Source of the DNA: Flaccisagitta enflata
Lineage: Eukaryota
Assembly (NCBI GenBank): GCA_965153355.1
Contig: OZ231126.1
Coordinates: 6,262,001-6,326,000, forward strand
Direction of reading: 5' to 3'
Length of the DNA stretch: 64,000 nucleotides
How positions within the stretch are numbered: position 1 is the stretch's first letter; every line of letters starts with the position of its first letter. The notes beneath the pieces were generated by a model, which saw only the letters and a list, made by a program, of their open reading frames with translations, was not told the origin of the DNA and made no database searches. This document shows, one piece after another, positions 1 to 44,400 of the stretch. A program made the position numbers and the translations under genes.

Positions 1-590
1 AATCATTCGCGCGACGTCTTATTCCTCAACACAACGCCAACAAGACCCAAAACTAATCAGGGGCAGACGGAGGAATTTCGGGCCCCCATACAATCCATAA
101 TTAAGCCCCCCCCTCCTACCTGGCGCGACCGCAAAGGCGAATGATAACACATGTAATATCATTCTTTGTACATTCAATAGTTTAGGGCCCGGTTTTGCAC
201 ACCCTTTAATTAGGGGCCTTGGTTTATATTGGGCCCTAGACAATTCTTTTTTCTTTTCTGCTTTTTTTTCTTTTCTTTTTTTCTTTTTTTTCTTTTTTTC
301 TTTTTTTCTTTTTTTTTTTCTTTTTTTTTTTTTCTTTTTTTTTATTTGGTCTTTTGCCTTTTTTTTCTTTTCGTTTTTTCCCTTTTTCTCTTTACATCCC
401 CTGCTTTTCTTTGATAATTGAGGGGCCATCATTACTGTTCATAAGTTCATAACTGTAAATCATTACTGGTCATTTCTGGTCATCCTATAAGCCATCAACA
501 GGTTTCTTAATCCTCCTCCGATTATCGATACCTTATCACTAGATCACTGGGTTTGAGCTTGATCCTGACAGTGCTCTTGGTAGATCATAC

Positions 591-3500
591 CTTATCACTG
601 GGTTTGAGCTTGATCCTGACGGTGCTCTTGGTGGTGGTCACGCTGGAAACGTCGTCGAGTTTGATGATCTGCGACTTGACCGGCGTGAGTTCTTGTTCCG
701 TTTTGTCCACTCTCACTTTGACCCATCTGTGTTCGACGGGCGGTTTGGCGCTGTCAGTCGTGCAAGTCAAAGACAATTCTAACCCATTTTTCTTCCTTCT
801 TTTGTGGGTCGAGTTGTTTTTAGGGTTACTATTGTTGTTATTGTAATTGTTGTTTTTAGACCGTGTAGATTTCGAATAGGAAGAGGAAGAAGACACTGAG
901 GATGAAGAGTCCGACGACGATAAAGACGACGATGATGACGAGGACGAAGCTGATGACGCGGCGTCGACGAGCGCTTGGCGTTTCTCGTCAATGACGTCGT
1001 CGACGATGACGTCAACATCGTCATTGTTGGCGGAAGAGGACGCGGTGGCGACGAGCCTCTCCACGCCATTGTCGCCGCCGACGACGCCCGCATTGTTTCT
1101 TCTGACGCCGCTACCGCCATAAATCGCGTTATCGTCGTCGTTGTCGTAATCGTCGACGTCGTTCTCATCGTCGTCGACGTCGTCGTCGTAAGTCACTTTG
1201 TTGGGGTCTAACGTGGTCCCGTTATAACCCGTGATCGTAGTTCGGTTCGGCTCTTTGCGTACTTCCAGTAAAACTTTCACCTTATCTTCTCTCTGCGCCT
1301 GTATGTCGATCAGGGTGAGTAAGGGAGAGGAAGATGAGGAGAAAGAGGAAAAAGGGGTGAAGAAAGTCAATGAACGTTGAAAATAATCGTGACATTTGAT
1401 CGACGAGAGAGACAAAGAAGGCGAGGTAGTAAACGGAAGGTGCAGAAATACAAGTATCCGGGGGTTACAATATCGTCACGGACTGGTGGGCAAAGGCGTA
1501 CAACCCTCCATCCAGGCCACCCTCCCCAGATAGAATCTATGCGCGTATTCACTGTTCACACGACTAGAGTCGAGCATTACAGAGGAACTGAGGGAAGAAC
1601 CGAAGAAACGACGCGACGGTCTGACGGACGCGAAACGTCTCCTAAACAGAGCCACGAGTTGCGAGTCCACGACTAAAACAGCGCACACCACACGATACAC
1701 AGCTCAGCCTTGTAGATGAAACAATCATCATATTCGCACGCGCAGTACGAAACAACCAACTCGATAGCCGCGACAATGTAAAGAATAAAGAAAATTGCCC
1801 GCTGAAGAATGAAATGAAATGAAAGACATGACGAATGCTCCATCTTATGATCTTACCGTGTCACATTCAAACGTGCCGTCGTGCTGTTTGATTTTAAGAT
1901 GAAAGATTTGAAGCCTTCCTGTCTCATCGATACGAGAATCGGTGAAGTTTTTCACAGAGTTGAGAAACGTCGGGCCGAGCGTTCTCTCGTTTTTCTTCGT
2001 TTGTTGCCCGTTGACGTACTGAATATCGCGCGACAGTGGGGAGAAAGTGGGGGAGAAAGTGGGGGAGGAGGTGGGGGAGGGGGGAGGGAGGGGGGATGGA
2101 GATTAGATAAAGGGTTTTTGTAGAAATAAAATTTGATTTTGTGATGACGGGATGGGGTTAGAAAAGGATGTGGCCATGTGGGATACATGTAGAGACGGCG
2201 GGCTCAGAAGGAAGATGTGACGTCGTAAGAGGGAGTGGTCAGTGGAAAGAGTGGAATGGGGACGGCATTGAGGAGGAAGTGGTCGATAGAATGAGTGGTG
2301 GTGGGGGCAGGGACAGCGCTGAAGAGAGAAATAAAAGCTTACTGGAATGAGTGGAATGAGGGGGCAGGGTCAGAGTTAAAGAGAGAGTGGTCGGAAGAAT
2401 GAGGGGGTGACAGCGTGGAAGAAGAAGTAGTCAATGGAATAAGTGGGTTGAGGGGGGCGGGGACAGCATTAAAGAGGGAGTGGTCAATGGAGTAAGTGGA
2501 ATGGGGGGGCGGGGACAGCATTGAAGAGAGTTGTCGGTGGAATGAGGGGGTCGGGATAGTGTTGAGGGATTGGTCAGTGGAATGAGTGGAATGAGGGAGG
2601 GGGCAGCGTTGAAGGGAGAGTGGTCAATGGATTGAGTGGAATGAAGAGGCGGGGACAGCATTGAAGAAGGAGTGGTCAGTGGAATGAGTGGAATGAGGGG
2701 GCAGGGACAGCATTGAAGAGAAAGTGAGGTATGAAAGAGAAAGGAGAAGTACAAGAGAACATTACAAAAAACATCGCACATTGGTAGAAAGGTTGACAGC
2801 TTTGGTAATAAAGGGCCTACACGTTGAGAACACTACTGATTCTGACAAAAGCAGCAGTTCAAGCGATTACATATTAACATCCCGCGAAAGAGAGAGAAAG
2901 ATCAACTATGACAGAAGGTTGAAAGAAGGAAAAAGCTGAAAAGTTATCCCAGGATAGGATCCATCTGAAAGCCCATTTTGATCAGCGATAGCATTCAGAA
3001 GCTAACGTCAGGCAATCGTCAGGGAACAATTCAAGTTGTGTCCGAGGGGAAAATTCTAGTTATGTAACTTGTCTGAGGGGGGGGGGAAGAGGAGAGGAGA
3101 GGGGAGAGAGAGAAAAGGGGTGGTCGCGGCGAAAGAAACAAATAAAACTGACGAGGTTTTAATTCCACAAATAGTTTCATTCTTCCACAGACATAATTAG
3201 GATTCGCCACGAAGCAATATGGCCAGTGACGACACGTAAGACTAAGTGATGAAGGTATGATTATGGATCTGCTTTTTGAGAACGCGATTTCAAGCCTATT
3301 AACGAGACAACTTCAGATGCGCCCTTGGGTTGTAGCACATGAAGACCTAACTGCTGGTTTAGGCGATTGGTTGTTGCGGTTGTTGCGGTTGTTGCGGTCA
3401 TTGCGGTAGTATTTAGTCAACCTAAACCAACGGTTCAGGAAGGACCGCGAAATTGAGCAGACACCCTCCCCCTCACTGACTGTCTCCTGAACATCAATAA

Positions 3501-6438: not shown

Positions 6439-6475
<37 letters not shown>

Positions 6476-8355
6476 CGTTAGCGGGAACCACCCTTCAGTG
6501 GTTGTTTTTTTTTTCGCCCGACCGTATAAGACATAACGCAAGAGCTAACTCTCTCAATTTTTTAGTCGCGTACTACGCGACTCCTCACCGCGCTTTGTCG
6601 GTCCGTCCGTCACACTTTACTTTTTTTTGCGGTGTTTTGCCTCACTGCTCCTGCCCAAATAATCAAGTGACCTCAAATACAGCCCCTCCTAACCCACACG
6701 TGACTGGGGTAGCCGTGTATCCGGCCTTGTTTGTCCACCACACCAACTCCTTAATGACATTAGTAAGGCCTCTTTTTGCCTCGAGGACCACACAAAGAAA
6801 TAGGGTAGAACCCCGCTTCAACGAGTACGCTAGTAAGAAATATTCTGCCCTCGCCTAGAAAAATTCAGTAATCTAAATTGAAATGTTCGTATCCTGTGTG
6901 GGCCATGATAAGTGCCATCAATCAAAATGAAATACAGTTCCTCCGAATCTCTTTCCCGTAGAGTTTGGTTCTGTTCCATATCTCTCATAAACCTTTCAAA
7001 TTGGCATGTAGACATCCACTTTCTTACGATGATTTCTATCGTTTAAGCAGACACCATGGTCAAGTAGTTATTGTCTCGTCCTTACTCCTTACTTCTTTTA
7101 CCTGTACGGTTTGGTTCTGCGTAAACTTCCAGACGACGAAGTATTTTGGGTCGTCGCATTCGAGGGTCAGAGAATCGTTGATCCAGCCCCATTTCTTCTG
7201 GATGTGGACCACGCGGGAAGTGAGGGAAGGAGCTCGACGTCGACGAGGCCATTGGAACTCGGGCTTCATCACCACTGCGAAGAAACAGGTGAGACGGGTC
7301 GTATAATATGGGTGCAATAAGGAAGCACGAGGGTCATGAACTGAACTAAAGTGATCTGGAAGAGGCCATTGGAACTAAGGGTTCATCACCACTGCGAGGG
7401 GACACATGAAGCAGTTTATATTATTGGCTTATTGAGAAGGGAAGCACAAAGGTCAGGAACTGTATAAAAGTGACCTGGAAGAGGCCATTGAAACTCGGAC
7501 TTCATCACCACTGCAATGGGACCAATTGATGAACAGTTTACATTCGAGTGTGTCAATATGCAGAACATTAATCCCTGAGAATACAACGCTAGGATATTGT
7601 GGGGTTACTAATTCTAATGCCTTCGCCGTTTTTCTTTTTTCAAATTTCTGTCATCTTCTGTATTTTTCAAAAACCCCGTTTTGCCCCTAATTTGCATAAT
7701 GTTGTAGTCATGTTATCTACTTTTCAACCTTCGCCTTGTTATAGTGGGCGTTCGAATCACATTTAAATACTGCTATCCTCTTTAAAGCTTTACGAAAAAG
7801 TGTCTGGTTAATCATATCAGAATCAATGAAACAGTTAGATGGTCTTTTTTAGCTAATCAATTTGTTTCTTGGCAAACAAGAATGTTGTCATTGCGTTAGA
7901 TTTCGATCGCGAAAAAAAACGGTTGCCGATGGAATTTTGGAGAAAGGAAAACAGCGGTCGTATTAAAATCAACTGCCCCATTTTGGGTCAGCGTCATGGT
8001 CTCAAACTCAGTTATCACCCGTATTTGACACACCTGAAGGTTGCATGTTGCGGGGCAGTGAGATTTGTAGCCTGAGGCGGGGGTTCAACTGTTTCTCTCA
8101 AACGAGTAACGCGGGATTGCAATTTCGGGTGAGGGAGTGGGTGCACATTAGCACAGCCACAGACAAAGACACTAACGCAAGCACGCGTGCGCACACACAC
8201 GCGCACACACACGCGCACACACACGCCCAACACGCCACACACACGCCACACACACGCCAAACACACACACACGCCAAACACACACACACGAGAAACACAC
8301 ACACACACACGCCAAACACACACACACACGCCAAACACACACACACACACGCCAA

Positions 8356-13169: not shown

Positions 13170-15852
13170 TTAATTGGTCCTTTTTCGAATAATGAATTTG
13201 TGCTTAGTCAATTGCGCCAGATGAATTTTCGTTTTGGTTCGATCTTCGACTTTACGGACGGTGATGACGTCTTGGTTACCAGCACCTGACACATGCCGAA
13301 GAAGGTGGAGAAGAAATGGAGTAGGGGGTAGTAATGGAGGATGGAGAAAAAATTGAGTGGGGGTGATTGGCAGCGTGGAGTGAGGGAGGGTGGAGAGGAA
13401 ATGGAAAAGGGAGTGATTAGCAGCGGTGATTAATAAACGAATTCGGGAGAAAGCTAGAAAAGTCAAATATCGCTCTAACGGACCCGTCAGTAGCGGCATT
13501 CCCCCTGTAGCAAAATAAAAAGCCTTCAATGTTTTTTCTGTTGATTTCCTACTATTACAGAATTCCGTTCATAACAGAAACAATTTTTTTAAGCCACTAA
13601 ATCAACTAAGAGGGAAATTGAAAATACGGCCCCTAAGCACCATCACCTTCCTCAAGGGATTTGATAACCCTCAAGTGTAATAACCTCAACTCCAGCGCTC
13701 TCCCCCCCCCCCTCCCCACGTAATAAAACACACACCCCCTCGTTGTCAATCCTACCTATAGCCATGATAACGGCCATTTCTCTGTCTCCGCCGACCGTTT
13801 CCAAGTAAATGGGTTGACCACGATGAAACCATTTTTTATCGTAAAACAATTTCCCATTTTCGATTCGAATGCCGACGACTGACGGAGCAGCGCCGCCGCC
13901 GCTACCGCCAGCGCCGGAAATGCTACCGGAAGCGGCGCCGCTGCCGCCGGTGGTAGAACCGGCGCCACTGCCACTTCCACCGCCGCCGCCGGCGATGGTG
14001 GTGGCGGAGGACGAAGAGGAGGCGAAGACGGCGGAGGAGGACGCGGAAAAACCATCGGATAAAGCCGCGGCGGAAACGGCAGCCGCGGCGGAGGCGGAAG
14101 AGGAGGCGGAGTGTGTGGAAGGACGTGCGGAGGAAGAGGAGGAGGAAGAAGACGCCTTCTGAGACGCCCAGAGTGAAAATTTTAAGGGTAAAATTGACGT
14201 GGTTTCAATAACGAATCTACTTTGTAATCAAGGCCCTCTCGCCAAATGCATAAGTTTTTAGGTGCGACAAAGCACCTCTATAACTGGCTGTGTCCATTGG
14301 TTGGTTGGTCGGTCTGTCGGTCGGTCTGTAACGCATTCGTTCGACGATCTACACGTCGCACCTTTTTGGCCTACTTGGCCTTGTTATTCATGTCCTTCGC
14401 CCCCGACGCGTGTATCAGACAAACAGCCAAATCATAAGCGCTCAAAAGCAGGCAAACGGAGAAACAGATCGCACTAGGAAATCCATGGATTTCATAGCAT
14501 TTGGCAAGCTCACTTGGAGAAGTTTGAGATCGTCGGCGATATCGTCTTCTTCCAAGAGTAAATTGATCGCCGATTGACCGTTTTTGCCTCGTTTCGAACT
14601 CGTCTGCGCGTTACGCGTCTCCGCGTGTCTGTCAACGGCACACAACGACAACAATCAACGGAAATGAAAGCGGCAGAAGCAGACAACAAACGAAGAAGAG
14701 AAGTGGAAGCAGACAAGAACCGAGGATAAGAAGTGGTAGCAGATAACAACAACAACAACCGAGGAAAAGAGGTGGCATCGTGGCAGCAGATAACGACAAC
14801 AACCATGGATAAGAGGTGGCAGCAAGCAACAACAAAAGATAAGAGGTGGCAACGAACAACAACAACAATCAATAATAAGACGCAATCTCAGACAACAACA
14901 ACCACCGAGGATAAGCGGTGGTAACAAACAACACCCAAAGATAAAAGATGGCAGCAGACAACAACAACAACAAGATAAGAAATGACAGCAGACAACAACC
15001 AAGGATATGAGATGACAGCAAGCAACAATCATAACCCCGCGGATAATAGGTGGCAGCAAACAACAACCGAAGAAAAGATGTGGCAGCAAACAATAACGAC
15101 AAGAAGGATAAGAGATGGCAGTAAACAACAAGAAGAAGGAAAAGGGATTGCAGCAAACATCAACAGAAGATAAAACAACAACGTTAACCACAACCACAAC
15201 AACGAATATAGGGGAAGAGCAACGACGGCAAGAGCAAAACGAACGAAGGGGGAAAAAAGAAAAATTAATATTAATTTCAAGCGTTTCGAATGCAAATGAG
15301 AGAAGCTTCGCGACACTTAACGTTGAAAAGTGGACAAATAAACTAACTGTGGAAGATTCTTATCTTTGCATTCCATCCAGATCAATGTCTTGTAACTCGA
15401 TTAACTGATGCGAAACAGTCTGTCCGCCAGTGTGACAATGAGTCGGTAACCATTTCAAATGAGAGTAACTGATAACCACGTAACATTTATTAGGAGATTA
15501 AGGTGCTTCATCATGCTTAATACACTACGTCAATTCGTAAGAAAAGAAAGGAACTACTACTGCTGCTGCTTCGCCATCGTTTGAAAAAAAAGTAACCTTT
15601 GTATTTCAACCCTTCTCGGCATCGCCACCGGAATGAACAGATCCCTTTTAGCGATTTTTGCGTGTTTAAATTTCGAACTGAAAACATGATCGCGAAAACA
15701 ATAAAATAAAGCCAATATGAGTGACTGACTTGATTTATTAAATGGATGAATGTTCGAATAAACTCAAACATTCAGTATAAGGATTTAAAGATCATCTGAG
15801 CCTCACTTTTCATATTTCTTTAATAAAGCGTGACTAACAGACAGACAAACAA

Positions 15853-15903
<51 letters not shown>

Positions 15904-18900
15904 GGACCTCTAACAGAGGTGCAAGGACGAATATAATGATGTTGTGCCATGCGATAAGTGGATGCATAGGTGGCGTTTATTAATTTTTTCTCATAACCAT
16001 GCGTCCATGCCCTATTGGATATATATCAATATAATCCGGACGCCTTTCGCGCCTGTGGCTGATTTCTACGCCATTGTTCACTTGCACAAAGAGCATCAAA
16101 TCATGTTTGGCTTACCGCTTCCTGAGTGTTCTAGTGACTGGTTTCTGATCCATGGCGTCGTAAAGCGACGTCATGAGTCGCGAGGACGCGGTCCCAGTCA
16201 AGTCCATACTTTGCCTTTCCGCTTCCACCTGCAACGAAAAGGTGACAAATGTCCCATTGACTAGGCCAGATTTCGACTTCAATGTGCTACACTTGTCAGG
16301 AAGGATTAAGAAAAGAACAGAAAGCTAACCATATATTTGGACAGCGTCACATATCTTGACATTGGATTGGTAAGGCACCTGTTTTTTCTTTTCCTCCAGA
16401 TCTGAGATGAGCGTTTCTCTGAGTTCGACTTTTCTTTCCTCGAATTCTTTTACAGCGGCTTTGATTTCATTCCGATATTCATTTTCAATCTGCAAATATT
16501 CAATGATTATTCGTAAATACAATTTTTAGTACAATATACACTTTTTTTTATAAGAACGTCATTTTTTTTTCGAAGGCTTCATGTTCTTATTTTTAAGATC
16601 AAATGAAGCCTTCAACGTTCTTAGAGTGTTCCAATTTAAAATACTATATAAACTATAAGGAACCTTACAATATACCATTATTTGATTACATTAAATATAT
16701 TTCTATTGAATACTATTAAAACAAATGCTAAACAATAATGTCTGGGGATATTTTCTTGGTTTTTATATTAGAAATTAAAGAATTTTATCTTAATTATACT
16801 AAAGTGTTAGTGTTTTGTTAATATTCTTTAAATGTTACTTTAAGCGAAATTTTTTTCTCAAGATTTGAAGCCTTTGTATGTTCTTAAGATGTTCTTAATT
16901 TTGGGGCTATTCGAAGCCTTGATGTTCTTATAAACTAGGTTCTTAAAAAAAAGATCAGACCCAGCTACTCGATCAGACCCAGCTACTCGATCAGACCCGG
17001 CTACTCGATCAGACCCGGCTACTCGATCAGACCCGGCTACTCGATCAGACCCGGCTACTCGATCAGACCCGGCTACTCGATCAGACCCGGCTACTCGATC
17101 AGACCCGGCTACTCGATCAGACCCGGCTACTCGATCAGACCCGGCTACTCGATCAGACCCGGCTACTCGATCAGACCCGGCTACTCGATCAGACCCGGCT
17201 ACTCGATCAGACCCGGCTACTCGATCAGACCCGGCTACTCGATCAGACCGGCTACTCGATCAGACCCGGCTACTCGATCAGACCCGGCTACTCGATCAGA
17301 CCCGGCTACTCGATCAGACCCGGCTACTCGATCAGACCCGGCTACTCGATCAGACCCGGCTACTCGATCAGACCCGGCTACTCGATCAGACCCGGCTACT
17401 CGATCAGACCCGGCTACTCGATCAGACCCGGCTACTTGATCAGACCCGGCTACTCGATCAGACCCGGCTACTCAGACCCGGCATACCTGGAAGTCCATGA
17501 TGGCATACCTGGAAGTCTATGATGGCATACCTGGAAGTCTATGATGGCATACCTGGAAGTACAACAATAAAAAATGATAACTACGGAAATTTCAAAAAAA
17601 ATAATTTCAAAACAAAATTTCAAAAATTTCAAAAAAAAAAAAAAAATTTCTTTAAAAAAAAAAATTCCAAAAAAAAAAAGAAAAAAAAATTCAGAAAAAA
17701 AAATTTTCAAAAAATTTTAAGTCCAGAAATTAATGTTACTAGACTAGATACATCATAAGTACCCTTATATTTTCTTAACCAATACTCAGAATCTACTGAA
17801 ATCTTGCAGGGGAGCTTTAATTGATGCAATTAACCTTCACAACAAGTTTGAACAATATTGGTGAACCTTTACTACCCTTCCCCTATGTAATTAGCACAAG
17901 TCCAGGAATTACTATTACTAGCAAAATACCCTTATATCTTCTAAACCAATACTCATAATTATCTGAAATCTTGCAGGGGAGCTTTAATTGATGCAACGAC
18001 CCTTTACAGCAAGTTTGAACAACATTGGTGAACCTTTACTACCCTTCCCTTATGTAAATTGCACAAGTCCAGGAATTAATATTACTACAAAAATAATAGG
18101 CAAAGGGTATTGAATATTTATGAATGTTGTTGAAAGTTGGTACACAGGTTAGTACAGAGGAAGGCGAAATATAAAATGTGAACCCCCTAAAACTGTAGCA
18201 CCCCCCCTTACAGATCAAACTACATCAATAAATAATTTATATTAGGTTTTCAATTATAGCTTAGGACTATACAAGTGGCGCCACCAGGGCGATATTGAAA
18301 TTTCCACTCCAGTTCAAAATTATAGTACAAAAACCTTATTTTTATGAATATTTAAAATTAGTTCATTTTAACATGTTTATTAGTTATATTTTGAGTTAGA
18401 GGTCAAAATTTAAAAATCGCTCTGGTGGCGCCACTTCTATTGATACAAACATTCTTTCTTTACTCTAAAAATCTCTGTATATTGATTAGAGCTGTAGGTG
18501 GGGGTGCTACAGTTTTTAGGGGGTTTACACCTTGTATTTAGCACTTCTCTGTAATGCCCTAAAAATAACACTGACCAAGTTTCATCAACATCTGAGTACT
18601 GGTTCTCAAGTTTTCAAGGGTTGACACAACGAACAAACAAACAAACAACGACTCACTACACGAAAGGAATTTTCAAGGCTATGTTATAGACCACATCGAG
18701 AAATAACTCAATGTGGCCAAAAAGTGTATTTGTTGCTATTTGTTTAATTTGTTCATATACAGAACCAATGACATTACAGTGAGAGGGGCAGTCAAAATCG
18801 CTAGCAACCCTACCTGCAGCTCAAATGGTTACTACCACATGGAAAATAAAGGTGGCGCCCAACAACTTGTCCCAATTCAATTCCCGCCATCGAGGCGATT

Positions 18901-20830
18901 TCCTAATTTCAACGTAGTTTTCAAGATACAGCCCTTTTTAGGGTGAAAATCAGCTATTTTCTGAGGTGTTGATTTAGCTAATTTATGACCAATATCTTCG
19001 GAACTATGAAGAAATTCAAAAAACGCCTCGATGGCGGGAATAGTATTGGGATAAGCTATCAGCCAGTACCTCAGTTTTCCCTGTAATATTGTCCATCCAA
19101 GCTGTGGGTAGGGGTGCTAGCGATTTTGCTGCCCCTCTCATTATATTATCATTGCGACTGTAAACGTTAATTTCAGAGTTGAAACTTTTTCAAGATTCCG
19201 TCTTTCCAATGAGTAAATCACTACCAACTAGTCAGTCCTATCATTTACGACGTTGGCGCCCTCGCAGCATGCTGGAATGATGATCAGCTTTACCATCTAC
19301 AGTTCTACACTACACAATAGCATAACAGGAGTTCATACGAAGTCATAGGAAAGTTCTCTATCAAAAGGATATGACTCAAAATCATGTACACATACAAACC
19401 ACAACAAAAAATTGGCCCTGGCACCTCTCAAAATTACCGCCGCCACCCCACTCATATCCCATAGAAAATGTACAGGAAGGATTTTTGCCTATGTTTTACT
19501 ATGGGAAAGGGGGCAGGTGGCGGCGCCAATTTATAGGGGTTCCAGGGCTAAATTTTTTTCATGGAACATCTGTAAACATGATTTTGGGCCATATCCCTCT
19601 GATAGAGAACTTTTCTAGGAAATCGTATTGATTGTTGTTAGGCTACTACACAACAACGACGCACCTGTTGGAGCTCGTATTCCCGGGCCACTTCTCGGTA
19701 ACGACACGTTTCGCGATGCGCGGCTTCGAGTTTTTTCAGTTTCTTGTTGTATTCCGGCAGAGTGCCCTCTTCCAGACGTTTCAACTGAGTCTTTAGACTA
19801 TTCAGTTTGTCCTGATACATTTGTTCTTGAATGTCGGCTGTATCCAGGTTGCCATTGTCCTGTTAATCGTATTGGAAGGAAAAGTATTGAGTAAATAAAA
19901 GACGGCGGTCAGGTGTTGTGAGTGATGAACAGGTGCCGAGGATGGCGAGGATACAAATCATGGCGGGATCAATTGAATTACGTGTCTATTGGTAGCGTGG
20001 AAAAGTTGAGTCAGCGTATGACGCAGCATTGAATATTTGTCAGTGAAGTAGATCTGATAGTGCTATGATATTTAATTTTTTATATAATGTAACTATGAAG
20101 CCGCTGAATACAAATAATTAACGAACAGCAACATTTAGGCAGCGGCTTTTAGCAAATTCCTGTTTTTCTAGCTAAAACAAGGCCAAGTTAAGGCCAATAA
20201 GTGCGCCTCGCTTGATTAAGAATTTGTGAATGAACTTTTTGATGAATGAATGAATTAAAATGAATGTAGTAAGGCATGAAAGGTGATAGGAATGAAGAAA
20301 TACGTCAGAATCCGTTCTTTTGCTTATTTTAAACGTTTGCGTGACCGACCGACCGACCGACCAACCGACCGACCGACCGACCGACCGACGGACATGACCT
20401 CTTATAGAAGTGCGAGGACGCACTTAAAAACCAGGAGCGATGATGACTGGGGATCTTCAATCGATTACATATTTACCGATACACCCTGGAAGGTTTTCGA
20501 AAAAGGGGCCCTTTAAGTTAAAGTCTAAGGTACCCTTGGATGCAAAAAGGCACTTCCAAGAGACCCTCCAAGTTAAAACCTTATTATCTCCCTTGCTCTC
20601 ACCGCTTCGTCCGACGATCTTGCGTCTTCCGTATCTTCGTCGGAATCCTCTCCATCGCTCATTCGTCTCCGCGAAATGTCCTCAAACGAAGTCGGTCCTC
20701 TTCCTCTTCCCACTCCCCCTCCTCCCCTCGCCGACATGGTCGTCGTCGTCGTCCGTTCGTCGCCGGAACTGTCCATGTCCGCCGGCAATTTCTCCACCGC
20801 CTTGACGCCGCCTCGCCACTGCTTCTGCAT
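13170..20830 (-). CDS. SUDS3: Sin3 histone deacetylase corepressor complex component SDS3
   Basis: Exons 20830-20603 (start codon uncertain), 19859-19665, 16489-16379, 16228-16116, 14628-14514, 14158-13756, 13285-13170, all GT-AG and in phase. The motifs SDEDTEDA, EQMYQDKLNSLK, KAAVKEFEERKVELRETLISDLEEKKK and RIENGKLFYDKKWFHRGQPIYLE match SDS3. Confidence 0.93.
14640..15200. repeat. Degenerate ~35-bp minisatellite in a SUDS3 intron
   Basis: GATAAGAGRTGGCAGCA...ACAACAAC units abutting the acceptor at 14629. Confidence 0.75.
16954..17480. repeat. 18-bp tandem array (ATCAGACCCGGCTACTCG), about 29 units
   Basis: Direct inspection. Variant arrays (TCTGACCCGGCTACTCAG) at ~11408-11656 and ~59415-59610. 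Confidence 0.95.
18155..18551 (+). mobile_element. MITE, internal-deletion derivative of the 48290-58387 element family
   Basis: Same TIRs as the large element; 18265-18551 aligns with 58097-58387. The empty site caggttagTAatgccc is seen in the paralogous repeats near 12311 and 60250, which shows the TA duplication. Confidence 0.92.
18760..19160. mobile_element. TA-flanked MITE family B, copy 1
   Basis: CAG...CTG ends, ~60-bp imperfect TIR (GAGAGGGGCAG..AAAATCGCTAGCA..CC), TA on both sides. Homologous to 36919-37320. Confidence 0.82.
19335..19628. mobile_element. Degenerate foldback MITE
   Basis: ~110-bp imperfect inverted arms (AAAGTTCTCTATCA...GGATATG..CAAAATCATGT and its reverse complement). 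Confidence 0.6.
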
Positions 20831-24600: not shown

Positions 24601-27600
24601 CTCTAATCTGTACTACAACGTAGATGTGATTCTTCGATTTCAATTTGGATGGACTACTGTACGAATAAATGGATAAACGCTCATAAAAGAGCGTGTACAA
24701 AAAAAAGAGCTGTGCTTGTAGGAAAACGTCAGGTCACGTCACTTCTTCCGAAGATTCTGGGGAGAATATCGGTGACGATTAAGGAAGATTTACAGTGTGT
24801 ATAGTTTTTGATGAAAACAGAAATTTTACAAGACTTGATAAATGGGCTGAATATAGTGGGTGACCTATTTTACCCCGTCACCCACTTGCCAGGCCAAACT
24901 TACCTCCAGTTGGGAGTTGATGTGGCTTTTTTCTACGAGGGAGTGAAGAACGTTGAGAACCGAATGTACGTTCCAAATGGTTGGATGAGTCCGGATGTGG
25001 TTAATGTCGCTGGCCTCTAACTTTGTCAAATTCGACCTAATATGCAAAATGGATGTGATGTGAACTTGAAATGTCAAAACACGGATAGTACAAAACAAAC
25101 ACAAAATATGACGTTAATGGGTGTAAATGAGGTACTTAGTACATGCAGTTTACCAAGCAAAACGGAATGACATCAAATCTCACTTATCAAATCAAACCCC
25201 GCAATAACGGCTGTCAAAGATACATACAGTCATGCTTGGATAAATTGCAACTGGATTCTCGAGCCTATCACTCAGTCAAAAATCAGAAAAACTTAGCAAA
25301 ATCCCAGATGAAATTGAAGCTCTTCAAAAGATGAAGAGATTGAGACCAAGTAGAACAAATTTTGTTGATGCATATAGATGGAATGCTGTTTTAAAGAGAA
25401 GGACTAAAAAATGGGGAGGGAAATTCATCATATTTGAGCGTTATTTCTATTGGTGATATTTTTCTTCAAACCTTTATTATTTCTAAAAGAATGAAGCCAC
25501 AATGACCAGCAATATCGCATTTGGAAGATTTTTTGCAGAGCCTTCAAATGGTCATGAATGTTTTATGGTTTGGGCCCTTAGTTTGACCAAACCTAAAAGA
25601 ACAAGAAGAGATTAACATGCAATGTCGGTGGTCTCTCTACCTAAATTACCTCATTAGCTTTGCAACCTTAATGTCCTGCAGAATCTTGAAAAGTGGTGAA
25701 AATGGTAGCAAATTAACTAAATATTGATGCTAACCTGTCGAAAAATATTCAATTTATACAGTTTGACCGATTAAGTATCGCTCAATGATCAAATAAAGTT
25801 CCAGTTGCAATTTATTCAAGCAGGACTGTATTTTTAGGTGCGGCAAAGCATCTCTTTAACTGGCTGTGTCCGTTGGTCGGTTGGTCGGTTGGTCGGTCGG
25901 TCGGTCGGTCTGTCTGTCGGTAACGCATCCGTTCGACGATCCACACGTCGCACCTTATTGGCCTACTTGGCCTTGTTTCTTCTTTAATTTAAGCGGTATT
26001 AACGGATTTCTGCAATCGCTAACATGAGTAAAGGAAACTGATAAGAAGGGACCAGCATTTCACATCTGTTATGGCCGGATTTTCGTTACTCTTGGATCCG
26101 GTATGGTATAGCGGGGTGTATTTGTGCGAAAAATGCACCAAAAGCACAACTGACCGACGACGAAAAGCATGTCTCAAAAACTATTGAAACCTGAAAAGGC
26201 TGAAGGATTGGAACTGGTAGATGAACTCGTCGATAATATCCCAGAGCCATTGGTTGGGCAGTTCGCGGTTGATGGGTCCGTCGTTGTTGAGGATGAAGTT
26301 GAAAAGGTTGCAGTAGTTGTAGTAAGACTCGTAACGATGCTCGAAGGTGGGAGCGTGAGCTACGCGAGCGTAAATGTGACGGAAGTACAACTCTTTGTAC
26401 AAGATCAGGAAGAACGGATCGTTTTGGCCTGGAAGAAGTAGGCGGAATGGAGGGTGAGATAAATTTGGAGATGGAGATTGAAGAAGGGTGGGTGGGGTGG
26501 GGTTGGTACTTTGTATGGTCTAGCAAACCGGTTTTTTTAAAATCGCAGTATGGAGTAGAGAGCATAAAACAAGGTCAAGCACAACTCTTTGTACCCTGTG
26601 TTGGGCTGTTGGCCCTATCCTTGGAGTATCGATAGATAGGAGCATTGAGTGGGGTGGGTTTTGGGTGGGGGAGAGATAATAGATGGGGCGCGAACGAGGT
26701 ACTGCGGAAAGAGTTCTTCGTTTGACTAACTTATCTTTTAAAATCGCGGTTCTGGAATAGGTCTGAAATAGGTCATGAGGAGTAGGAAATAAGTAAGGCC
26801 AAGTAAGAATTTTTCCCAGATGGAACGAGATGGTTAACGATGTCAAATAAAGCGCATCACCGCTCGGTGCCGCTAGCCTCAGCACGGCGAAGCTCATATG
26901 ACCGGTTGGAGGCCTTATTTCGTCTCAGGTCATGACCTCGGTGTCTGGACTTACCCATGGCTCTGGTGCATGATGAGTTTTGATGACCTCGGGGTCTGGA
27001 CTTGACCACGACTCTGGTGATGACCTCGGTGTCTGGACTTACCCATGACTGGTGATGACCTCGGTGTCTGGACTTACCCACGACTCTGGTGATGACCTCG
27101 GTGTCTGGACTTACCCACGACTCTGGTGATGACCTTGGTGTCTGGACTTACCCACGACTCTGGTGATGACCTCGGTGTCTGGCCATGGATCGTTCTTGAA
27201 AAACCGCTCCGTCAGTTTCGGGAACCCATTCTCGTAACATTCCTATGAAAAATTTACAATGGGAAAGTCGATAAGCCAATAAACCAGACAATCACAACGT
27301 GACGCGAACGAGTAGTTGGTCAACAATTAGTCAATCCGAGACAAATGCCACAAACACTGTACTATCCCTGATCGACGATCATGCAGGGCAAAAATCATTT
27401 ACATCACAGACTGTCAGTCCAAACAGTTCAGACAGACAAGGTCTCGACAGACACATGCCAAATATACACAGGCCAGACAGGCACAGTAGAGATAGACAGG
27501 CCAGACACACGCTAAACAGACACAGGCGTGATAGAGAGGCGTGATAAATAGGCCAGACAGACACTGGCCCGGCTGACAAGCGTCACACAGTGATGCAGGC

Positions 27601-28589
27601 CAGGCGAACACACCGTGCTCAAAGAAACTCTTCCCGGACCTGAATCTGCGCTACGTTTCTGTCTGCGATGACTTGCTGGAAATAAGTGAGGAAATTCCTG
27701 ATGACTTCCGGAATGACGGTGATGCCTTGAGATTGACGCGTGGGCTGGTAATGATGGCTGCTGTGACGTTGATCCAATTGGTAAGGATCGTTGAAACCAT
27801 ACCTGGTTGGCAACAAGAGGTTCCCTCTATAACTCACAAATACAGATACACACGCACAAACAAGTACAAACACACGCACAAACAAACACTCTCACACACA
27901 AATACACACACTGACACACACACAAACAAACACTCTCACACACAAATACACACACACACACGCACACACTCAAAAACACACAAACACAGAGCATTTTCTG
28001 TATGATTAAACAGAATCTCAAGTAACATGACATGCCTCTCCTCGAGCTTCTGTATTTATAACCCTTAATGACGATACAGAAACTTCTGTTTTTTCCATCC
28101 CTGCCCAAAAGTGCCTTTCTTATCCTCATTTCCAGTTGTTTCCCCCTTTTTAGTCGCGTGCTACGCGACTCTACAACCCGCTTTGTCGGTCCATCCGTCC
28201 GTCACACTTTACTTTTTTTTTTTTTTTTTTTTTTTGCGGTTATTGGCCTCAATGCTCCTGCCCAAATGATCATGTTACCTAAACTACGGCCCCTGCCCAC
28301 CCGCACGCGATTGGAGTTGCCGTGTATCCGGCCTTGTTTTCAATAAAATTGCTGCCATACTTTCTTTTTCCTAGCATCTCTCTTCTCTTTGTCGCGCTCC
28401 ATTCCTTTTAACCTTTCTTATTCCTTCTCCTCGCTCACAATTATACGCAAAAACAACAACAACAATAACAACAACAAAGCTATGAACTCACCCTCCGCCT
28501 CCACCGCCGCCGCCTCCTCCTCCTCCTCCTCCAGACACTCCAGTGCCGTAATCCTCTTCATAATCGTCGCCATCGTCGTAATCGTACAT
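21650..28589 (-). CDS. EIF3L: Eukaryotic translation initiation factor 3 subunit L
   Basis: 11 exons: 28589-28492, 27802-27640, 27242-27152, 26428-26191, 25036-24904, 24540-24340, 24183-24076, 23656-23528, 22915-22707, 22498-22321, 21784-21650. Diagnostic motifs: [87 protein letters not shown]. Confidence 0.97.
22920..23385. repeat. Degenerate 30-40-bp purine-rich minisatellite filling most of an eIF3L intron
   Basis: Units of the form AAGAAAGAGTGAATTGAAAGAAAT(TGAAAGAAAT)CATCG. Confidence 0.85.
26930..27185 (-). repeat. 37-bp tandem repeat of the eIF3L exon-3 end plus its GTAAGT donor
   Basis: Unit CCAGACACCGAGGTCATCACCAGAGTCGTGG|GTAAGT, about 7 copies, decaying into the intron. Confidence 0.92.
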
Positions 28590-30137: not shown

Positions 30138-31085
30138 TTAGGCTCTACACTTATGAGAGAGAAGGAAGAATCCTAGAATAAGAACGGGAACGATAGAGAC
30201 AGAAACGACGAAGATGACCAAAGGCAGAGACCGAGTTAATGACGACGTCAATTCGTTCTTCGGTGGCTTCACATCGCGAACGCACCTAAAAACAGAAAGA
30301 AAGAAGAAATGATTAAGAGAAAGATATTCAAAGGTAGACAATAGTAATTCGCTCTTTGGTTGTTTCACATCGCGAACGCACCTAAAAACAGAAAGAAAGA
30401 AGAAATGATTAAGAGAAAGATATTCAAAGGTAGACAATGTTAATTCGCTCTTTGGTGGCTTCACATCGCGAACGCACCTAAAAACAGAAAGAGAGAAGGA
30501 ATGATTAAGAGAAAGATATTCAAAGGTAGACAATATTAATTCGCTCTTTGGTTGTTTCACATCGCGAACGCACCTAAAAACAGAAAGAAAGAAGAAATGA
30601 TTAAGAGAAAGATATTCAAAGGTAGACAATGTTAATTCGCTCTTTGGTGGCTTCACATCGCGAACGCACCTAAAAACAGAAAGAGAGAAGGAATGATTAA
30701 GAGAAAGATATTCAAAGGTAGACAATATTAATTCGCTCTTCAGTTGTTTCACATCGTGAACGCGCCTTAACAAAAAGAAAGAAATGATTAAGAGAAAGAT
30801 ATTCAAAGGTAGACAATGTTAATTCGCTCTTCGGTGGCTTCACATCGCGAACGCACTTAAAAACAGAAAGAGAGAAGAAATGATTAAGAGAAAGATATTC
30901 AAAGGTAGACAATGTTAATTCGCTCTTCGGTTGCTTCACATCGCGAACGCGCCTTAACAAAAAGAAAGAAGAAATGATTAAGAGAAAGAAACTCAGAGAA
31001 AGACAAAGACTGAGAGGTATAAGCGCGAGGACAGTGAGATAGACAGAAAAGCAGGTAGAAAGAAAAGCAGATGTGGGAAATGGGC

Positions 31086-37767: not shown

Positions 37768-37815
37768 AGGAAAGAAAGAAAAAAGAAAGAGAGAAAAAAA
37801 GAAAGAGAGAAAGAG

Positions 37816-37858
<43 letters not shown>

Positions 37859-37891
37859 AAAAAAGAAAGAAAGAAAGAAAGAGACAGGGAG

Positions 37892-37923
<32 letters not shown>

Positions 37924-38403
37924 GTGAGAGAAAGAAAGAGACAGGGAGAAGAAAGAAACAAAGAAAGAAAGATAGAGTGAGAGAAAGAAAGAGAATGAGA
38001 GAGGGATGATTATCTATGGACTTCAATGATGATCACGGAATCAAATTCTGGATTGAGTTTCACATAGGCTAAGTAAGGAGGGTCATCGGCTTTCCATCCC
38101 TATGTTCACGCTGTAAAGCCTAAAGGCGGAGGAAAAGCATAGAAATGGGGGAATGGAGTCCTTGCACTTGGACGCCATATTCAGTATATTTAGTAGACGA
38201 CGAACTGAGAATTTCGCCTCCTCGTCGATCGATAATGAGACGAGGAGTACGCGCATCAACGCGGATGTGACGGTGGAAGAGATCGACAGAGACGCGCTTG
38301 GAAGAAAGAGAGAGAGAGAGAGAGAGGATCCGGGGATCTACGAAAAAATTTCTGCGAAGCGAAAAAGCATCGCAACGCCCTATTCAGCCTCACAACATCG
38401 TCG

Positions 38404-41400
38404 TCAGGCGACTCTCTGAAGATTGGCGAGAGTGGCTTCGTAGAAGTCGACGACAGAGTTGGGAAGCGGCTGCCAGGAGGATGAACTGGACTCAAGAACT
38501 CGCAGCAGCAAACATCTCGTCAACGACTCGGTCTTGCCATCCAGGATCTTCTGACGAACGCTTTCGATCAACGCCTGATCAAGATGGGGGCGGAGGAAAG
38601 AGATGGACGAATGTTGTGATGGGCTTAAGAGGATGAAAAGTGGCCAATGAAGGCCAGATTCCTCACTCGTCTACTTGAGCATAATGGACTTATGAACTGT
38701 CTTGCCCTTCCGTCTGGCGATGATGCATGCTCATAGCAAGAGACAAGAGAGTGGAAATATACTCCTTAAACGAACCTGCTCTTTGTCTTGGGCTTTTTCC
38801 CTCAAAATGGGTCCGACCAACGTGAGATTTTGAGCAAGGACGAGACTCGCGTCGTTCGTCAGCGAAAAATCCTAATCAATTAACACAAATTTGATTCAAA
38901 ATCAGTTCTCCCTCATGTGTCGTATGTACGATCGGTCATCAATCTGATGTACATGATATTGATATATGCACAAGAGAACATAATTCATCCCCCAGAACTA
39001 TGGAACTATGGGTTCTGATTTCCAAACGAGCAAAAAGCCATGATGAACACAGCATCGTAATTAAGGAATTTGCAACTGGTTGAGTGGTTGGAAGACACTT
39101 GCGGATATGACTGGCAGTATCCTGGGGATATATGACAACGGAAGGTGCTAACGGCAGAGGCATTTACCTGCAGCATCATGGAGAGATATTCGACAACGGG
39201 AGTTGCTAACGGCAAAAGTGGCATTCCAGATCGATCCCGCATTTCCGCAAAAACTCCGCATAACAAAGTCACGCACGATAAAAAGTCGGACTCGGACTTT
39301 TCGAAGATCGTCGCTCTGCGTTGGGGGGGGGGGGGAGAAGGGGGGGAGAGAGGAGAGGAAGAGAAGAAAAGATATTGATTGCACACCCTAGATGGCGAGT
39401 TTTACAGTCGCAGTATTCAAGGGTCAGCGGTATCCGATGCCCCTAAGTCGGTGCATGTTAAGATGACATGATAAGAGGGGGCACATTTGTTTCAGGAGTT
39501 ATATAACCTCTCACGGACACCGGATGGGACAAAGATCAAGATTGACTAGGCCAAGTAGGCCAACGATGCGTCCTCTTTGAATGAACGTTTTTTATGAATA
39601 AATGTCTTTTTTGAGGATGAATGTCATTTGTGAATGAATGAATGATTGAATGAACGAATTACTTGATGTATGCTTCTTTTACTGAGGTACAACCACTTTT
39701 CTGTTGAAAAAATGCTTACTTTGATGTTTTTAATGAATGCGTTACCGACCAACCGACCGACTGACCAACGGACACAGCCTATTATAGAGATGCATGGACG
39801 CATCTAAAAACGGTGAACAGAACATAGTACACAAATGACACAATCAATGAGTTTCCGACATGAGTAGCCTGTCGGACAGCCTAATCAAGACTGAACCATC
39901 CCACAGTTGATTAACATCCATCATGACCCTGACCTACTCTTAAAATCCGATTAAAGGCCTCTTAGGAGGAATCCTCTGAATTCTAGTCCTCCTTGATTGT
40001 GATGAGTGAGACTGACCTGTTCTTAAAATCCGATTAAAGACCTCTGAGGAAAAACCCTCTAATTTTGCTCAACCTTGGTTGTCACAAGTGAGACTGACCT
40101 GTTTTTAAAATCCGATTAGAAGGCCTCTAAGGAGGAACCCTCTGAATTCCGCTCCTCCTTGGTCGAGATGAGTAAAACTGACCTGTTCTTAAAATCTGAT
40201 TGAAAGTTTCTACGAGGAACCCTCTAAATTCCGCTCCTCCTTGGTCATGATGAGTAAGACTGACCTGTTTTTAAAATCTGATTAAAGGCCTCTGAGGAGG
40301 AATCCCCTGAATTCCGCTCCTCCTCACTTGTGATGAGTGAGACTGACCTGTTCTTAAAATCCGATTGGAGGCCTCTTAGAAGGAATCCTCTGAATTCCGC
40401 TCCTCCTTGATCGTGATGAGTGAGACATTGACAGGTTTGAGCGGCTACTTGGGAAAAGGCCCGATCCTCGATACAAATCGCGTGAATCGAACGCGCCACG
40501 TCCTCGGCGCCTGAGGATGACAGAGGGGAGGAGAAAAATGGCATGGACGGTACTGATGACAGAAGAGGAGAACAGCGAATACGGATGAAGAGGAGGGGAG
40601 CAAGGACATGGATGATCACAATGACGAAGAGAAGAAGAACGATGAATATGGATGATAACAATGACAAAGGGGAGGATAAAAGCGACATGGATGATAGCGA
40701 TCAAGAGGAGGAGAACAATAACATGGATGATGACAATGACAGAAGGGGGAGAAGAACAATGACATGGAGAACAACAATGACATGGATAATAACAATGACG
40801 AAGAGGAGGAGGACAATGACAAGGATGATAATGGCAGAACGGGAGATCAATGACGCAGTAGAAGGGGAAATACGACATGCGTGATGAGAAAATGAAGAAA
40901 ATTAACACTACAGCATGCAGCAGGAGGAATGCCGTTACAGCATGCAGCAGGAGGAATGCCGTTAAAGAGGGAAAGGAAGGAGTTTCAAAGCCCGCAGATA
41001 TTTGTCATAATTACCATCAGGGAAATAAGGTTTCAGTTTGTCAAAAAGATCTCCTGGGCTAGATTTGTTTTTCGCCGCATTCCTGACCACCACTTCCGGA
41101 GGCGTGGTTGGACGCTGCTGTTGTTGTGGAAGCGGTGGTTGCTGTTGTTGTGGAAGCGGTGGTTGCTGTTGTTGTTGAAACGGCGGTGGTGACTGTTGAT
41201 GGGAAGGTGGGGGCGTCGGCGGTGGAGGACTGACGAATCCTCCGGCATTTGGAGGGGGCGTAGGAGTGGAAGGAGGCGGAGGGGTGGAAAAGGAAGTCGG
41301 CGGAGGCGGCGTGGAAAAAGGCCCCAGAGAAGATTGTTGTTGCTGTTGATGCTGCTGCTGTTGCCGCGATGAAAGTTGCGGCGATAATGGTTCCGTCGGC

Positions 41401-44400
41401 GACTGGGACGCCAAACGAGGATAGGCACCTGGGGCATCTTCGAATTGACTCTCTGTACATTTTAGACAACGAAAGGGCGGGGGGTGCAATGAACGAATAA
41501 GTGATGCTTCCTCGTAAGGTCAAATGGCATGGCCACGCCCAAAAAATTCGAGTTTCAGGTTTTTACCAAATTTTCATGATCAACAGTCCATAATAGAGAC
41601 AACTTATTTTCAGATCGACAGAGACGAATACACCGCAAGGCGATTTCTGTGGTATTTCCCTCAGCGCTTAGCCCTTTCCTTACAGTAGGGTTTGTGGAAT
41701 GACAGGCTAAATTGGAGGAAGGTATTTAAGTGTCTTAATTTCATTTAACAAACTTGATATTTGAAATATAAGTTGTTCACTCGATGCTTTTGTCCCTGAG
41801 TTTTTTTGTTGCTATGGAAACTAAAATTATTTTTTTAAACATTTATAACTACTAAAATATCAATATTTTGGGAAATATTGTCAGGGAACATTGCTCAAAA
41901 TTAGATTTGCTACAACTTTCCCGCAATATGTTCTGTAAGAATATTGCTCGTTTGGCGGTTGCTAGGGGGTATCACACCTAGCAACCGCTAAATGATGCTT
42001 CCTAGCAACGGCTAAACGAGCAATATTCTTACAGGACATACTGTGGGAAAGTTGTAGCAAATTTAATTCTGAGCAATGTTCCCTGATAATATTTGTCAAA
42101 ATATTGATATTCTAGTTGTTATAAATGTTCAAAAAAATAATTTTGGTTTCCATAGCAACCAGAAAACTCAGGGACAAAAACATCAAGTGAACAACTTATA
42201 TTTCAAATATCGAGTTTGTCAAATGAAATTAAGACACTTAAATACCTTCCTCCAGTTTAGGCTGTTATTCCACGAACCCTTCTGTACCTCTTGTCTGATT
42301 GTCGATGAGGGCGGTTAACGCTGGCGGCGGTAGATTGTCGAGAGACTGTTGCAGAGAGAGATAACTGAGAGAACCGCGTCCTCTTCCTCGCCCACGAGCC
42401 GGGGCAGCACTCACCAACGCCTCCATTTGTTAAAAGCTGGTTGGTTAATCGAAACGACGCTGAAACAACTCGGTAATCAAGTTCAATGAACCGTCGACCG
42501 TCGATTGTATCTCGGATGTCGAGTAGTCCCGTTATCACGAAAAATTAGGGAATCTATATATATATTGCCTATGTATCACAGAGATAAACTACAATAAATG
42601 GATGGCCAACGGGATGGGCGCGAGAGGAAGTGCGAGGAGGGACAAGCTTACTCGGCCTGCGCGATGGGAGGTGGCATTGACGCCGAGCCGAGCTCTTTAT
42701 CTGAGTGGCTGTCGATAGATACCACGATAGTCGATAGTTAGGCTTCATTCAATACACTTAAGAAAAACAGGTCTGGAAAGAAATGGAAAAATCAAAGTAT
42801 GGTGACAAACCAGTTATGGTAAATACATGGGGTCAAATAAGAAGACATTTAACGGTGGTTGTATCACAGCTTTAAAAAGATGTTAAGTTGCCTGTAAAAT
42901 TGGGATCAAATTGATCATTGTCATTGTTCAAAATCAAAAGTTGCCTGTGAAGTTCAGATCGAAATGATCATTGTCATTGTTCAAAAATCACAAGTTGCTC
43001 GTGAAGTTGGGATCGAAATGATCATTGTCATTGTTTAAAAATCACAAGTTGCTCGTGAAGTTGGGATCGAAATGATCCAAATAAACGATGACGTCAGAAT
43101 CGGAATTGAGTAAAAACGAAGAATCGATGAGAAACGTCGACGTTGAGTCGTCGTCGAAAAGCCGGCAGTCGTCGGCAACTAACGCAATTCCTTCTGTGGT
43201 AAGTGAAACGCCATCTGTAGGTAGTGTAGCTACATCTGTGGTCAGTGTAGCTTCATCTGTAACGACCGAAGAAACGTCCGTGTCTGCGATGAGAGCGATC
43301 CCGTCGGTGGCTAACAAGGAGCCATCTGTGGGGAGCGAAGACACATCCGTGGCGAGCGAGGACCCATCTGTGGCGGGCGAGGACCTATCCGTAGTGAGCG
43401 AGGAATTGTTCGTGACGAGCGGTGAATGAAAACATTCAGTAACTAGAGATGGCCCATCTGATAACTTATCGTTTATGAGCGATGAACCTTCCTCTACGAC
43501 TACTCGTGAAGTTCCGGTTGTTACGAACGAATGTCCATTATTTCCCACGTGAGATTCCAGAGGTGACCCAAAAGGTAACTCGTCCATATCGCCCTTGCTG
43601 GAGCCCGTTTCAGTGAATTTTGTGTTGTCGTTTTTGACGCCAATATTTCTCGAGACAACGCCATCTGTAGAATAGGGAAGAGAGGCGAATAAATAACACG
43701 AGGAAAATCTTTCAGTTTTTAACTTTAAAACCACGGGGTTATGATGATAAGACTCAATGATGGTCTAAATAAGGAGGGGAACAGGAAGATAAGAACTAAA
43801 TAAGTGGAAAGGGAAAGAGGAGGAAAAGGGGTGCGGAAAGACGTCTTACTTAAAGGTTACAAATCACCAGCTCAAATGGTAGGAACCGGGTACCGTTGGC
43901 GAGCTCAGGACTTGAATGATTCTGACAGTTCTAGACTTAAACTTAAAGACATGTTTTAGGAATGAACTGACAAGAGATCAGCGATTGAGATGAAATAAAA
44001 GGCAGAGGAGGAGGATGAAGAGGAGGGGGATGAATAGGAAATGGGGAAAAAGAAAACAAACTTGGGGTTTATCGCTCCCAGAAGCATCTGTATTTGAAAG
44101 AAAGGGTCGAAAGAATGAAAATAAGCGGATCAAGGATCAGCAAGGAATTCATAAAGCATGAATAATGAAATCGAAAAGGAAACAGAGAAAAGACTAAGGA
44201 CAGAGTGGACAGAATGGGAGGAAGAGATAGGGAGAAAGAGAGGAAAGGCTGGAGACAGAGGGAGTTGAAGGAAGAGATAGGAAGAAAGAGAGCAAAGGCT
44301 AGGGACAAACGGAACGGAAGGATGAGATAGGCAGGAATACAGAAAAGGTTAGGGACAAAGGAAAAGGAAGGAAGAGATAGGAAGAAAGTAAAAGGTTAGG

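Follow-up and report, generated by a model that had tools for sequence, protein, structure and literature searches.

Why do the ends of exons recur as tandem arrays inside the adjoining introns of a 64,000-nucleotide stretch of Flaccisagitta enflata DNA? This stretch, hereafter the window, covers positions 6,262,001-6,326,000 of contig C1 (OZ231126.1, assembly GCA_965153355.1) and lies on a chromosome of 112.6 Mb, at a distance of 6.3 Mb from one of its ends, in a genome of 794 Mb in 9 contigs. A first-pass annotation made from its letters listed seven junctions duplicated together with their splice sites, here called echoes, and offered two readings: a duplication process focused on splice junctions, or general local duplication filtered by selection. 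In a sample of loci from elsewhere in the genome, the frequency of echoes in the outer quarters of chromosomes, where the window lies, is about ten times that in the central half, while duplications confined to introns show no such difference; this gradient is very probably real. The arrays themselves almost certainly belong to a known class, the mirage-type minisatellites described in amphioxus.

All seven listed arrays are present, and six of them cross a coding splice junction (Table 1). The remaining one, listed as a donor array, starts within the final part of an open exon of 206 codons and crosses the TGA. It is unsupported as a donor because its sole GT scores 0.51, under the 2.64 that marks the 1st percentile among 252 donors defined by homology, and no GT scoring above 3 occurs in 43330-42811. 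It was rejected as a GT donor array on these scores; a non-canonical GC donor is conceivable. The donor echo at 39167 had been missed; there, the last ~58 exon nucleotides recur, 86% identical, right behind the first 3-4 intron bases. With this echo included, 7 of the 72 curated coding junctions of the window are echoed (four donors and three acceptors) in head-to-tail units of 37-119 nt that repeat the exon part as well as the intron part. In the six listed arrays that span junctions, the intact copy adjoins the exon, just as the annotation had described. A decay of the copies with distance, which it had also described, is a weak tendency: similarity and distance are negatively correlated in 8 of 12 arrays, in the window only in that of the eIF3L donor (-0.67), not at the donor at 40347 (0.21) or the RING acceptor (0.11), and the last copy falls below the mean of the other copies in 6 of 12.

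The copies differ in number and state from array to array. In the first gene, the copied donor unit contains a second GT and a short duplication within itself, and the acceptor has two copies, 117 and 236 nt upstream, each with ~85 intron and 30 exon nucleotides and a retained AG. Copies of the eIF3L acceptor, 98 and 248 nt upstream, likewise retain AG, with exon parts 90% and 82% identical. Five extra copies make up the eIF3L donor array, the nearest two equaling the true site in donor score, and five more, 77-89% identical and containing stops in the coding frame, follow the donor at 40347. The RING acceptor is preceded by seven copies of two alternating types, giving a higher-order period of 192 nt; a 59/72-nt higher-order period also occurs among the arrays. 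The RING unit reads through 32 codons without a stop in one frame, and the array forms one 226-codon open frame (30141-30818, minus strand); if the echoed acceptor were used, 32-residue units would be inserted before a hydrophobic C-terminal stretch. Proteins of related species align without gaps over both eIF3L junctions and the 40347 junction; these relatives may lack the arrays.

Table 1. Echoed junctions, the array over a stop codon and two genes of the window, in window positions
Feature	Position	Strand	Details
Donor echo, first gene	529..632	-	GT at 590; unit 51 nt = 42 exon + 9 intron nt
Acceptor echo, first gene	7245..7522	-	Exon start 7274; units 117/119 nt
Acceptor echo, last eIF3L exon	21727..22035	-	Exon start 21784; unit 98 nt
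Donor echo, eIF3L exon 3	26924..27182	-	Exon end 27152, donor 27151; unit 37 nt = 31 exon nt + 6-nt donor
Acceptor echo, last exon of RING-finger gene	30250..30989	-	Exon start 30285; unit 96 nt = 60 intron + 36 exon nt
Older donor echo, donor 39167	39110..39225	-	Exon 39315-39168; missed in the first-pass annotation
Donor echo, exon 40510-40348 of MIF4G-like gene	39929..40426	-	Donor 40347; 83-nt unit = 77-79 exon + 4-6 intron nt
Array over stop codon	42885..43077	-	54-nt unit, 3.6 copies; open exon 43664-43043
eIF3L gene (Paf67 family)	21650..28589	-	11 coding exons; hosts two echoes
Sds3-like gene	13170..20830	-	Between first gene and eIF3L

The sample outside the window comprises about 1 Mb (0.12% of the genome) of genes that were not chosen at random: ten dynein heavy-chain regions of 40 kb each and further, smaller dynein loci, in which protein homology defined 252 introns; loci of the kinase, myosin, DEAD and CCT/HSP60 families; and the 20 kb flanking the window at each end. 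Outside the dyneins and eIF3L, exons are ab initio predictions of a gene finder whose training set was the dynein introns. In two held-out genes it found 71 of the 74 donors and 70 of the 74 acceptors, with 4 false calls at the score used; it also took several echo copies for exons. One detector looked for ungapped self-diagonals; the other aligned the terminal 40 bases of each exon, with gaps allowed, to 250 bases of intron. Of 19,251 mismatched exon/intron pairs, 2 rose to the threshold of the gapped detector, which excludes chance matches. The mask applied to repeats was incomplete. Left out of the counts were loci that overlap or duplicate others (L025, L029, L050, L051, L052 and L100), 18 DEAD-family loci resembling single-exon repeats, four dynein loci without confident junctions and one echo copy in L046 predicted as an exon; L042, a near-identical paralogue, was left out of the bootstrap and the position counts. 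The echo counts are lower bounds because the 12-nt minimum missed a 1.5-kb array of 39-nt units in dynein D5 (L141-L144, C7:60.55 Mb), which reaches only 9 nt into the exon in the manner of human F7. Genome-wide, a triple-donor pattern was matched 2881 times and a control motif 1952 times, each less often than the reversed control and with mostly simple satellites among the matches listed, and a degenerate eIF3L motif had 0 matches in metagenome contigs.

In the gapped test, 27 of 910 junction windows outside the window are echoed (3.0%), against a background of 3.0% when every intron window is counted and 1.6% when those in interspersed repeats are set aside; the dyneins have 16 echoes at 504 junctions. 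Given the number of repeat families in each gene, and treating families as independent, 25 of the 79 non-repeat families lie on junctions where 11.0 are expected, or 25 of 137 against 13.2 when mobile elements are included. Even in the absence of targeting, junctions would be expected to gain up to about twofold, since the copy in the exon is neither degraded nor lost. None of the 120 CCT/HSP60 junctions is echoed, and an effect of housekeeping function or high expression was rejected on this count. Simple repeats next to the junction were rejected as a trigger (odds ratio 1.26, P = 0.67); they make up 15-19% of intron DNA 50-200 nt from splice sites and about 4% beyond 400 nt (497 introns, intron length uncontrolled). 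One old donor echo is common to three paralogous myosin genes on two chromosomes (L038, L041 and L042), of which L041 and L042 also have an acceptor echo in common.

Echoes are overdispersed among genes (P = 1.4e-6), and their position along the chromosomes was therefore examined. In the outer quarters 23 of 262 junction windows are echoed, in 10 of 36 loci, whereas the central half yields 6 of 688, in 4 of 53 loci (P = 5e-5 to 2e-4 by locus permutation with the window excluded). Intron-only duplications outside repeats number 39 of 1814 distal (2.2%) and 82 of 5444 central windows (1.5%, P = 0.19), and intron duplications overall amount to 3.1% and 3.0%. The distal ratio of junctions to introns is 4.1 (1.8-9.5) against non-repeat intron windows and 2.8 (1.3-5.5) against all intron windows, while the central ratio is below 1. 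The distal excess is kept when the three loci near the window are removed (16/199), in dyneins alone (15/109 vs 3/405), in the other families alone (5/106 vs 3/283, P = 0.02) and in introns of at least 400 nt (19/140 vs 4/260). It holds for donors and acceptors taken apart, for cuts from 0.15 to 0.33 and on 8 chromosome ends. It also holds against GC-matched intron windows (17/206 vs 11/548, P = 3e-4), on which GC content was rejected as the cause of the junction excess in distal loci.

The boundaries of the units carry a mark of splicing. The intron part of 26 donor units measures 2-195 nt, with a median of 24. In the window, all 4 donors have an intron part of at most 9 nt, against 0.82 expected (P = 0.0014), which agrees with the first-pass remark that units return to exon sequence 6-9 nt after the GT; outside it, intron parts of this length occur in 3 of 22 donors (3.4 expected), the junction lies uniformly within the unit, and a breakpoint rule at +6 to +9 was rejected. 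Intron parts shorter than 25 nt occur in 13 of 26 donor units and in 0 of 13 acceptor units (P = 0.0014). This asymmetry is expected under selection because the branch point and pyrimidine tract of an acceptor must survive, and it supports the conclusion that splicing selection filters the surviving units: donors may carry few intron bases, acceptors at least 25. The selection-filtered reading offered by the annotation is therefore upheld; its other reading, a junction-focused process, is opposed by the uniform breakpoints and the modest overall ratio given below, and is partly favored by the ratio in the outer quarters, a position effect that the annotation had not foreseen. In five donor units with only 2-4 intron nucleotides, exon-derived bases make up a good donor, which may arise by microhomology or selection. 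Most of the intron part is matched in 11 of 13 acceptor echoes, and a spacer largely without a match is seen in about 5 of the 26 echoes at donors and 2 of the 13 at acceptors.

In the arrays examined, GT is kept in 73 of 81 donor copies and AG in 48 of 54 acceptor copies, counts that the probe favors, and many copies equal the true site in score. No erosion of decoy sites by selection was seen, since GT and AG positions diverge no more than their neighbors, again with a bias from the probe. Most copies, if used, would bring in a frameshift or stops, as in eIF3L and in the MIF4G-like protein, and for this reason the copies are probably silent, the spliceosome presumably staying with the site contiguous with the exon. 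Judged from its sequence, the RING unit is the best candidate for real alternative use.

How the arrays arise, and why toward the chromosome ends, is best considered through the account that we regard as moderately probable, namely that the echoes are mirage-type minisatellites produced by recombination-linked local duplication in distal arms and filtered by splicing. That a segment of 20-150 nt, reaching from the end of an exon across the splice signal into the intron, has been duplicated head to tail, with the extra copies left in the intron, is shown by the arrays; the asymmetry between donor and acceptor units shows that a duplication survives if the first donor or the last acceptor stays whole. 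By analogy with other systems, births through recombination or break repair, that is, by unequal exchange or slipping strand annealing, would be concentrated in the crossover-rich distal arms. The arrays may then expand by unequal crossing-over, and the 192-nt and 59/72-nt higher-order periods point to such later exchange. The junction surplus would derive partly from the frozen exon copy, which may contribute up to about twofold, and partly from strand exchange that starts or ends in exons, where homologues would be most alike. A junction-specific excess beyond exon persistence has, in our estimate, an even chance of being real, and recombination as the cause of the gradient, argued by analogy, may equally well be right or wrong.

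Several observations weigh against this account. Its link to recombination is one of analogy. In the alignment of exon ends against adjacent introns that the first-pass annotation had proposed as a check, carried out here on the sample of about 1 Mb, the junction/intron ratio by locus bootstrap is 1.8 (0.84-3.25) against non-repeat intron, a value compatible with 1, and 1.0 (0.47-1.79) against all intron. The distal/central cut was picked after the clustering had been seen; loci added after the prediction gave 3 echoes at 33 junctions, all in 1 of 7 loci, and none of 38 was echoed in the 5% of each chromosome nearest its ends. The sampled genes are non-random, exons other than those of dyneins and eIF3L are ab initio and the repeat mask has gaps. 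In addition, the repeated intron part matches well in most echoes, which gives no direct sign of an origin from two divergent haplotypes; such an origin, when read from mismatch of the intron part, was unsupported. It is rather doubtful, although conceivable, that mirages are the footprints left when very divergent homologues recombine in meiosis, where strand exchange would pair well only in exons, fail or slip where intron homology is lost and leave a copy of the exon edge. Amphioxus is another highly polymorphic animal. If such footprints were the correct explanation, the echo rate would map crossovers and scale with heterozygosity, and about 1 in 11 distal-arm junctions would be a natural experiment in the choice among identical splice sites.

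Another possibility, which we consider unlikely, is that the arrays are a pure by-product: local duplications would strike at random, those at junctions would be tolerated and stay visible longer through the frozen exon copy, and the distal excess would reflect clustering in a few genes. The equal frequency in junction windows and in all intron windows (though not in non-repeat ones), the whole-sample bootstrap ratio, the uniform breakpoints, the absence of echoes from CCT/HSP60 genes and the strong overdispersion among genes all agree with a by-product, which nevertheless leaves unexplained both the tenfold distal rise of junction echoes without an intron-only rise and the surplus of repeat families on junctions, with or without mobile elements; the distal ratio of 4.1 also exceeds the roughly twofold gain from persistence, although its lower bound of 1.8 does not. 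A process tied to splicing or transcription is improbable. Paused polymerase, R-loops or a spliceosome footprint would cut or slip at splice signals so that units end just past the donor, as the four short donor units of the window, the completed donors in five units with 2-4 intron nucleotides and a density of simple repeats 4-5 times higher 25-200 nt from junctions than in deep intron (intron length uncontrolled) would suggest. It is contradicted by the ordinary number of such short donors outside the window, by the lack of echoes in the housekeeping CCT/HSP60 genes, by central genes that fall below the intron background (6/688 vs 1.5-3.0%), by the absence of an association with nearby simple repeats and by the window array that crosses a stop codon and not a splice site. 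Maintenance by selection, with the echoes serving as alternative splice sites or splicing enhancers, is still less credible. The retained GT and AG, many with true-site scores (again probe-biased), are what it would predict, as are the stop-free RING frame, the donor echo common to three myosin genes and a post hoc excess of acceptor units that are multiples of three (8/12, P = 0.019); of these eight, however, about 3 are stop-free in the likely coding frame, donor units lack the bias (5/18), copies contain stops and frameshifts, and the extra sites are silent in amphioxus and in human F7. Finally, an assembly artifact is extremely improbable, even though a 690-bp near-exact tandem duplication close to the window could be a mis-assembly, because the copies have diverged, by 0-25% among themselves and relative to the exon, and show shared variants as well as higher-order periods, and because the echo shared by the myosin paralogues occurs at places assembled separately, each with its own changes.

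Whichever origin applies, the gradient makes that of mirages directly testable against a recombination map. Extrapolation from the 0.12% sample suggests that identical donors, and likewise complete acceptors, form natural ladders at thousands of places in the genome, so that one RNA-seq data set could test the choice of first donor or last acceptor at scale. Echo copies also mislead gene predictors.

The echo-bearing genes of the window are all on the minus strand, in a series that runs from a phosphatase-like first gene through the Sds3-like gene, eIF3L and the RING-finger gene to the MIF4G-like gene. The labels "Ig" and "CTIF-like" given to the outer two in the first-pass annotation were dropped: in a family search of the window proteins the first gene has no Ig family match, and the gene with the 40347 donor has a weak MIF4G match below the cut-off (E = 0.031). 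The first gene is probably a receptor tyrosine phosphatase, because same-strand exons just outside the window start match the Y_phosphatase family; these and the window exons would form one gene. The RING-finger gene is named from a match to the RING domain, and the named eIF3L relatives among the best 120 share at most 79% identity. The Sds3-like gene has no echoed junction and provides an internal negative case. Upstream of the MIF4G-like start codon, a short exon (42651-42773, minus strand) stands between a strong acceptor and a donor; an operon with trans-splicing is possible in this region because no poly(A) hexamer was found in 43100-42400.

Other repeats and genes were encountered in the course of the analysis. 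In the 20 kb before the window start (L177-L178), phosphatase exons carry three more echoes, two acceptors (one of 11 copies) and one donor, and a small piece resembling an exon lies within the 690-bp tandem duplication found there. One element is present in three copies in the window, at 11408-12480, 16953-18670 and 59419-60400, each with a near-perfect 18-nt array (9-29 units) whose unit varies between copies, AT-rich repeats and a 167-nt dimer; the element is probably mobile and non-autonomous. On the plus strand, 49086-55915 holds a multi-exon open reading frame of transposase-like appearance, with AT-rich repeat blocks on both sides. At C1:4402949-4403093 (plus strand), a 46-nt tandem unit carries an acceptor and a donor back to back and looks like identical micro-introns strung together. 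On C2, at about 68.80 Mb (L121-L122), 2,684 codons of a DNAH10-like dynein heavy chain run on without interruption, while more than 36 introns divide a close paralogue at C6:56.25 Mb; the difference may be due to massive loss of introns or to a retrocopy of very large size.

Among known systems, the amphioxus mirages are the nearest. The passages on Adh3, troponin C, the globins BflGb6 and BflGb9, and PGBD5 describe mirages at both boundaries of introns (PMC3087553, PMC3902484); they are said there to leave splicing undisturbed, and their mechanism of origin is called unclear (PMC3087553). As in mirages, a head-to-tail unit of exon end, splice signal and adjoining intron occurs at seven window junctions, at 5' or 3' boundaries (four donors, three acceptors) and within the mirage range of about 10-160 bp, and the extra copies are intronic, many with AG or GT. 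Another trait of mirages is concerted evolution within the cluster from which the boundary copies are exempt; on this point the arrays show higher-order periods, and in 6 of 12 the last copy is below the average of the rest. The amphioxus passages treat few loci and give no frequency or chromosomal pattern, whereas here about 3% of sampled junctions and about 9% of those in the outer quarters are echoed; conversely, length polymorphism and normal splicing are documented for amphioxus mirages in those passages, while the present arrays are known from the sequence of one assembly. No count of mirages by chromosome position was found in the open-access literature, a search that did not extend to subscription papers such as the original Adh3 mirage papers, and the passages of PMC10078293 and of bioRxiv 10.1101/2021.07.19.452908, the latter on megasatellites, contain none.

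Human variable number tandem repeats (VNTRs) that span boundaries, cited from a portion of PMC1557585, include F7 IVS7 (37 bp), IFI6/6-16, CBS IVS13, LMNB2 and PDGF. There, as here, the first monomer crosses the exon-intron boundary and the donor is reiterated, and in F7 only the most upstream donor is used. The human examples named in that portion are donors only, with 4 exon bases in the F7 unit, whereas here acceptors are about as common as donors and the units contain 10-97 exon bases. The internal tandem repeats at exon-intron boundaries in human segmental duplications (ITRs; PMC2812944, in part) similarly turn exon sequence into added intron; those create new introns or alternative transcripts in young paralogues, according to the part cited, while here existing introns of conserved genes lengthen. 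Duplication by synthesis-dependent strand annealing (SDSA), as outlined in the cited part of PMC2671141, captures nearby DNA with a mean of 162 bp and can include splice sites. The short local copies are alike, and a handful of echoes with an unmatched spacer fit such capture; the captured copies are, by the definition given there, more than 50 bp from the template and non-tandem, unlike most echoes and all of the window arrays, which are head to tail. The arrays also depart from the Rogers model of intron gain, as summarized in the passages of PMC3087553, in which an intron is a duplicated exon segment bounded by AG|GT, because their units hold true intron sequence and the introns continue into unrelated sequence past the arrays.

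The chromosomal pattern has its own parallel. In the cited part of PMC7608644, human GC-rich VNTRs are 21-fold enriched in subtelomeres, which its authors link to meiotic recombination, and in both cases tandem repeats with long units gather toward chromosome ends. The human enrichment, as presented there, covers VNTRs generally and follows GC content, whereas the present one concerns junction-anchored copies only and survives GC matching. The arrays are thus a known oddity, and the new part is the tenfold gradient in position that appears specific to junctions.

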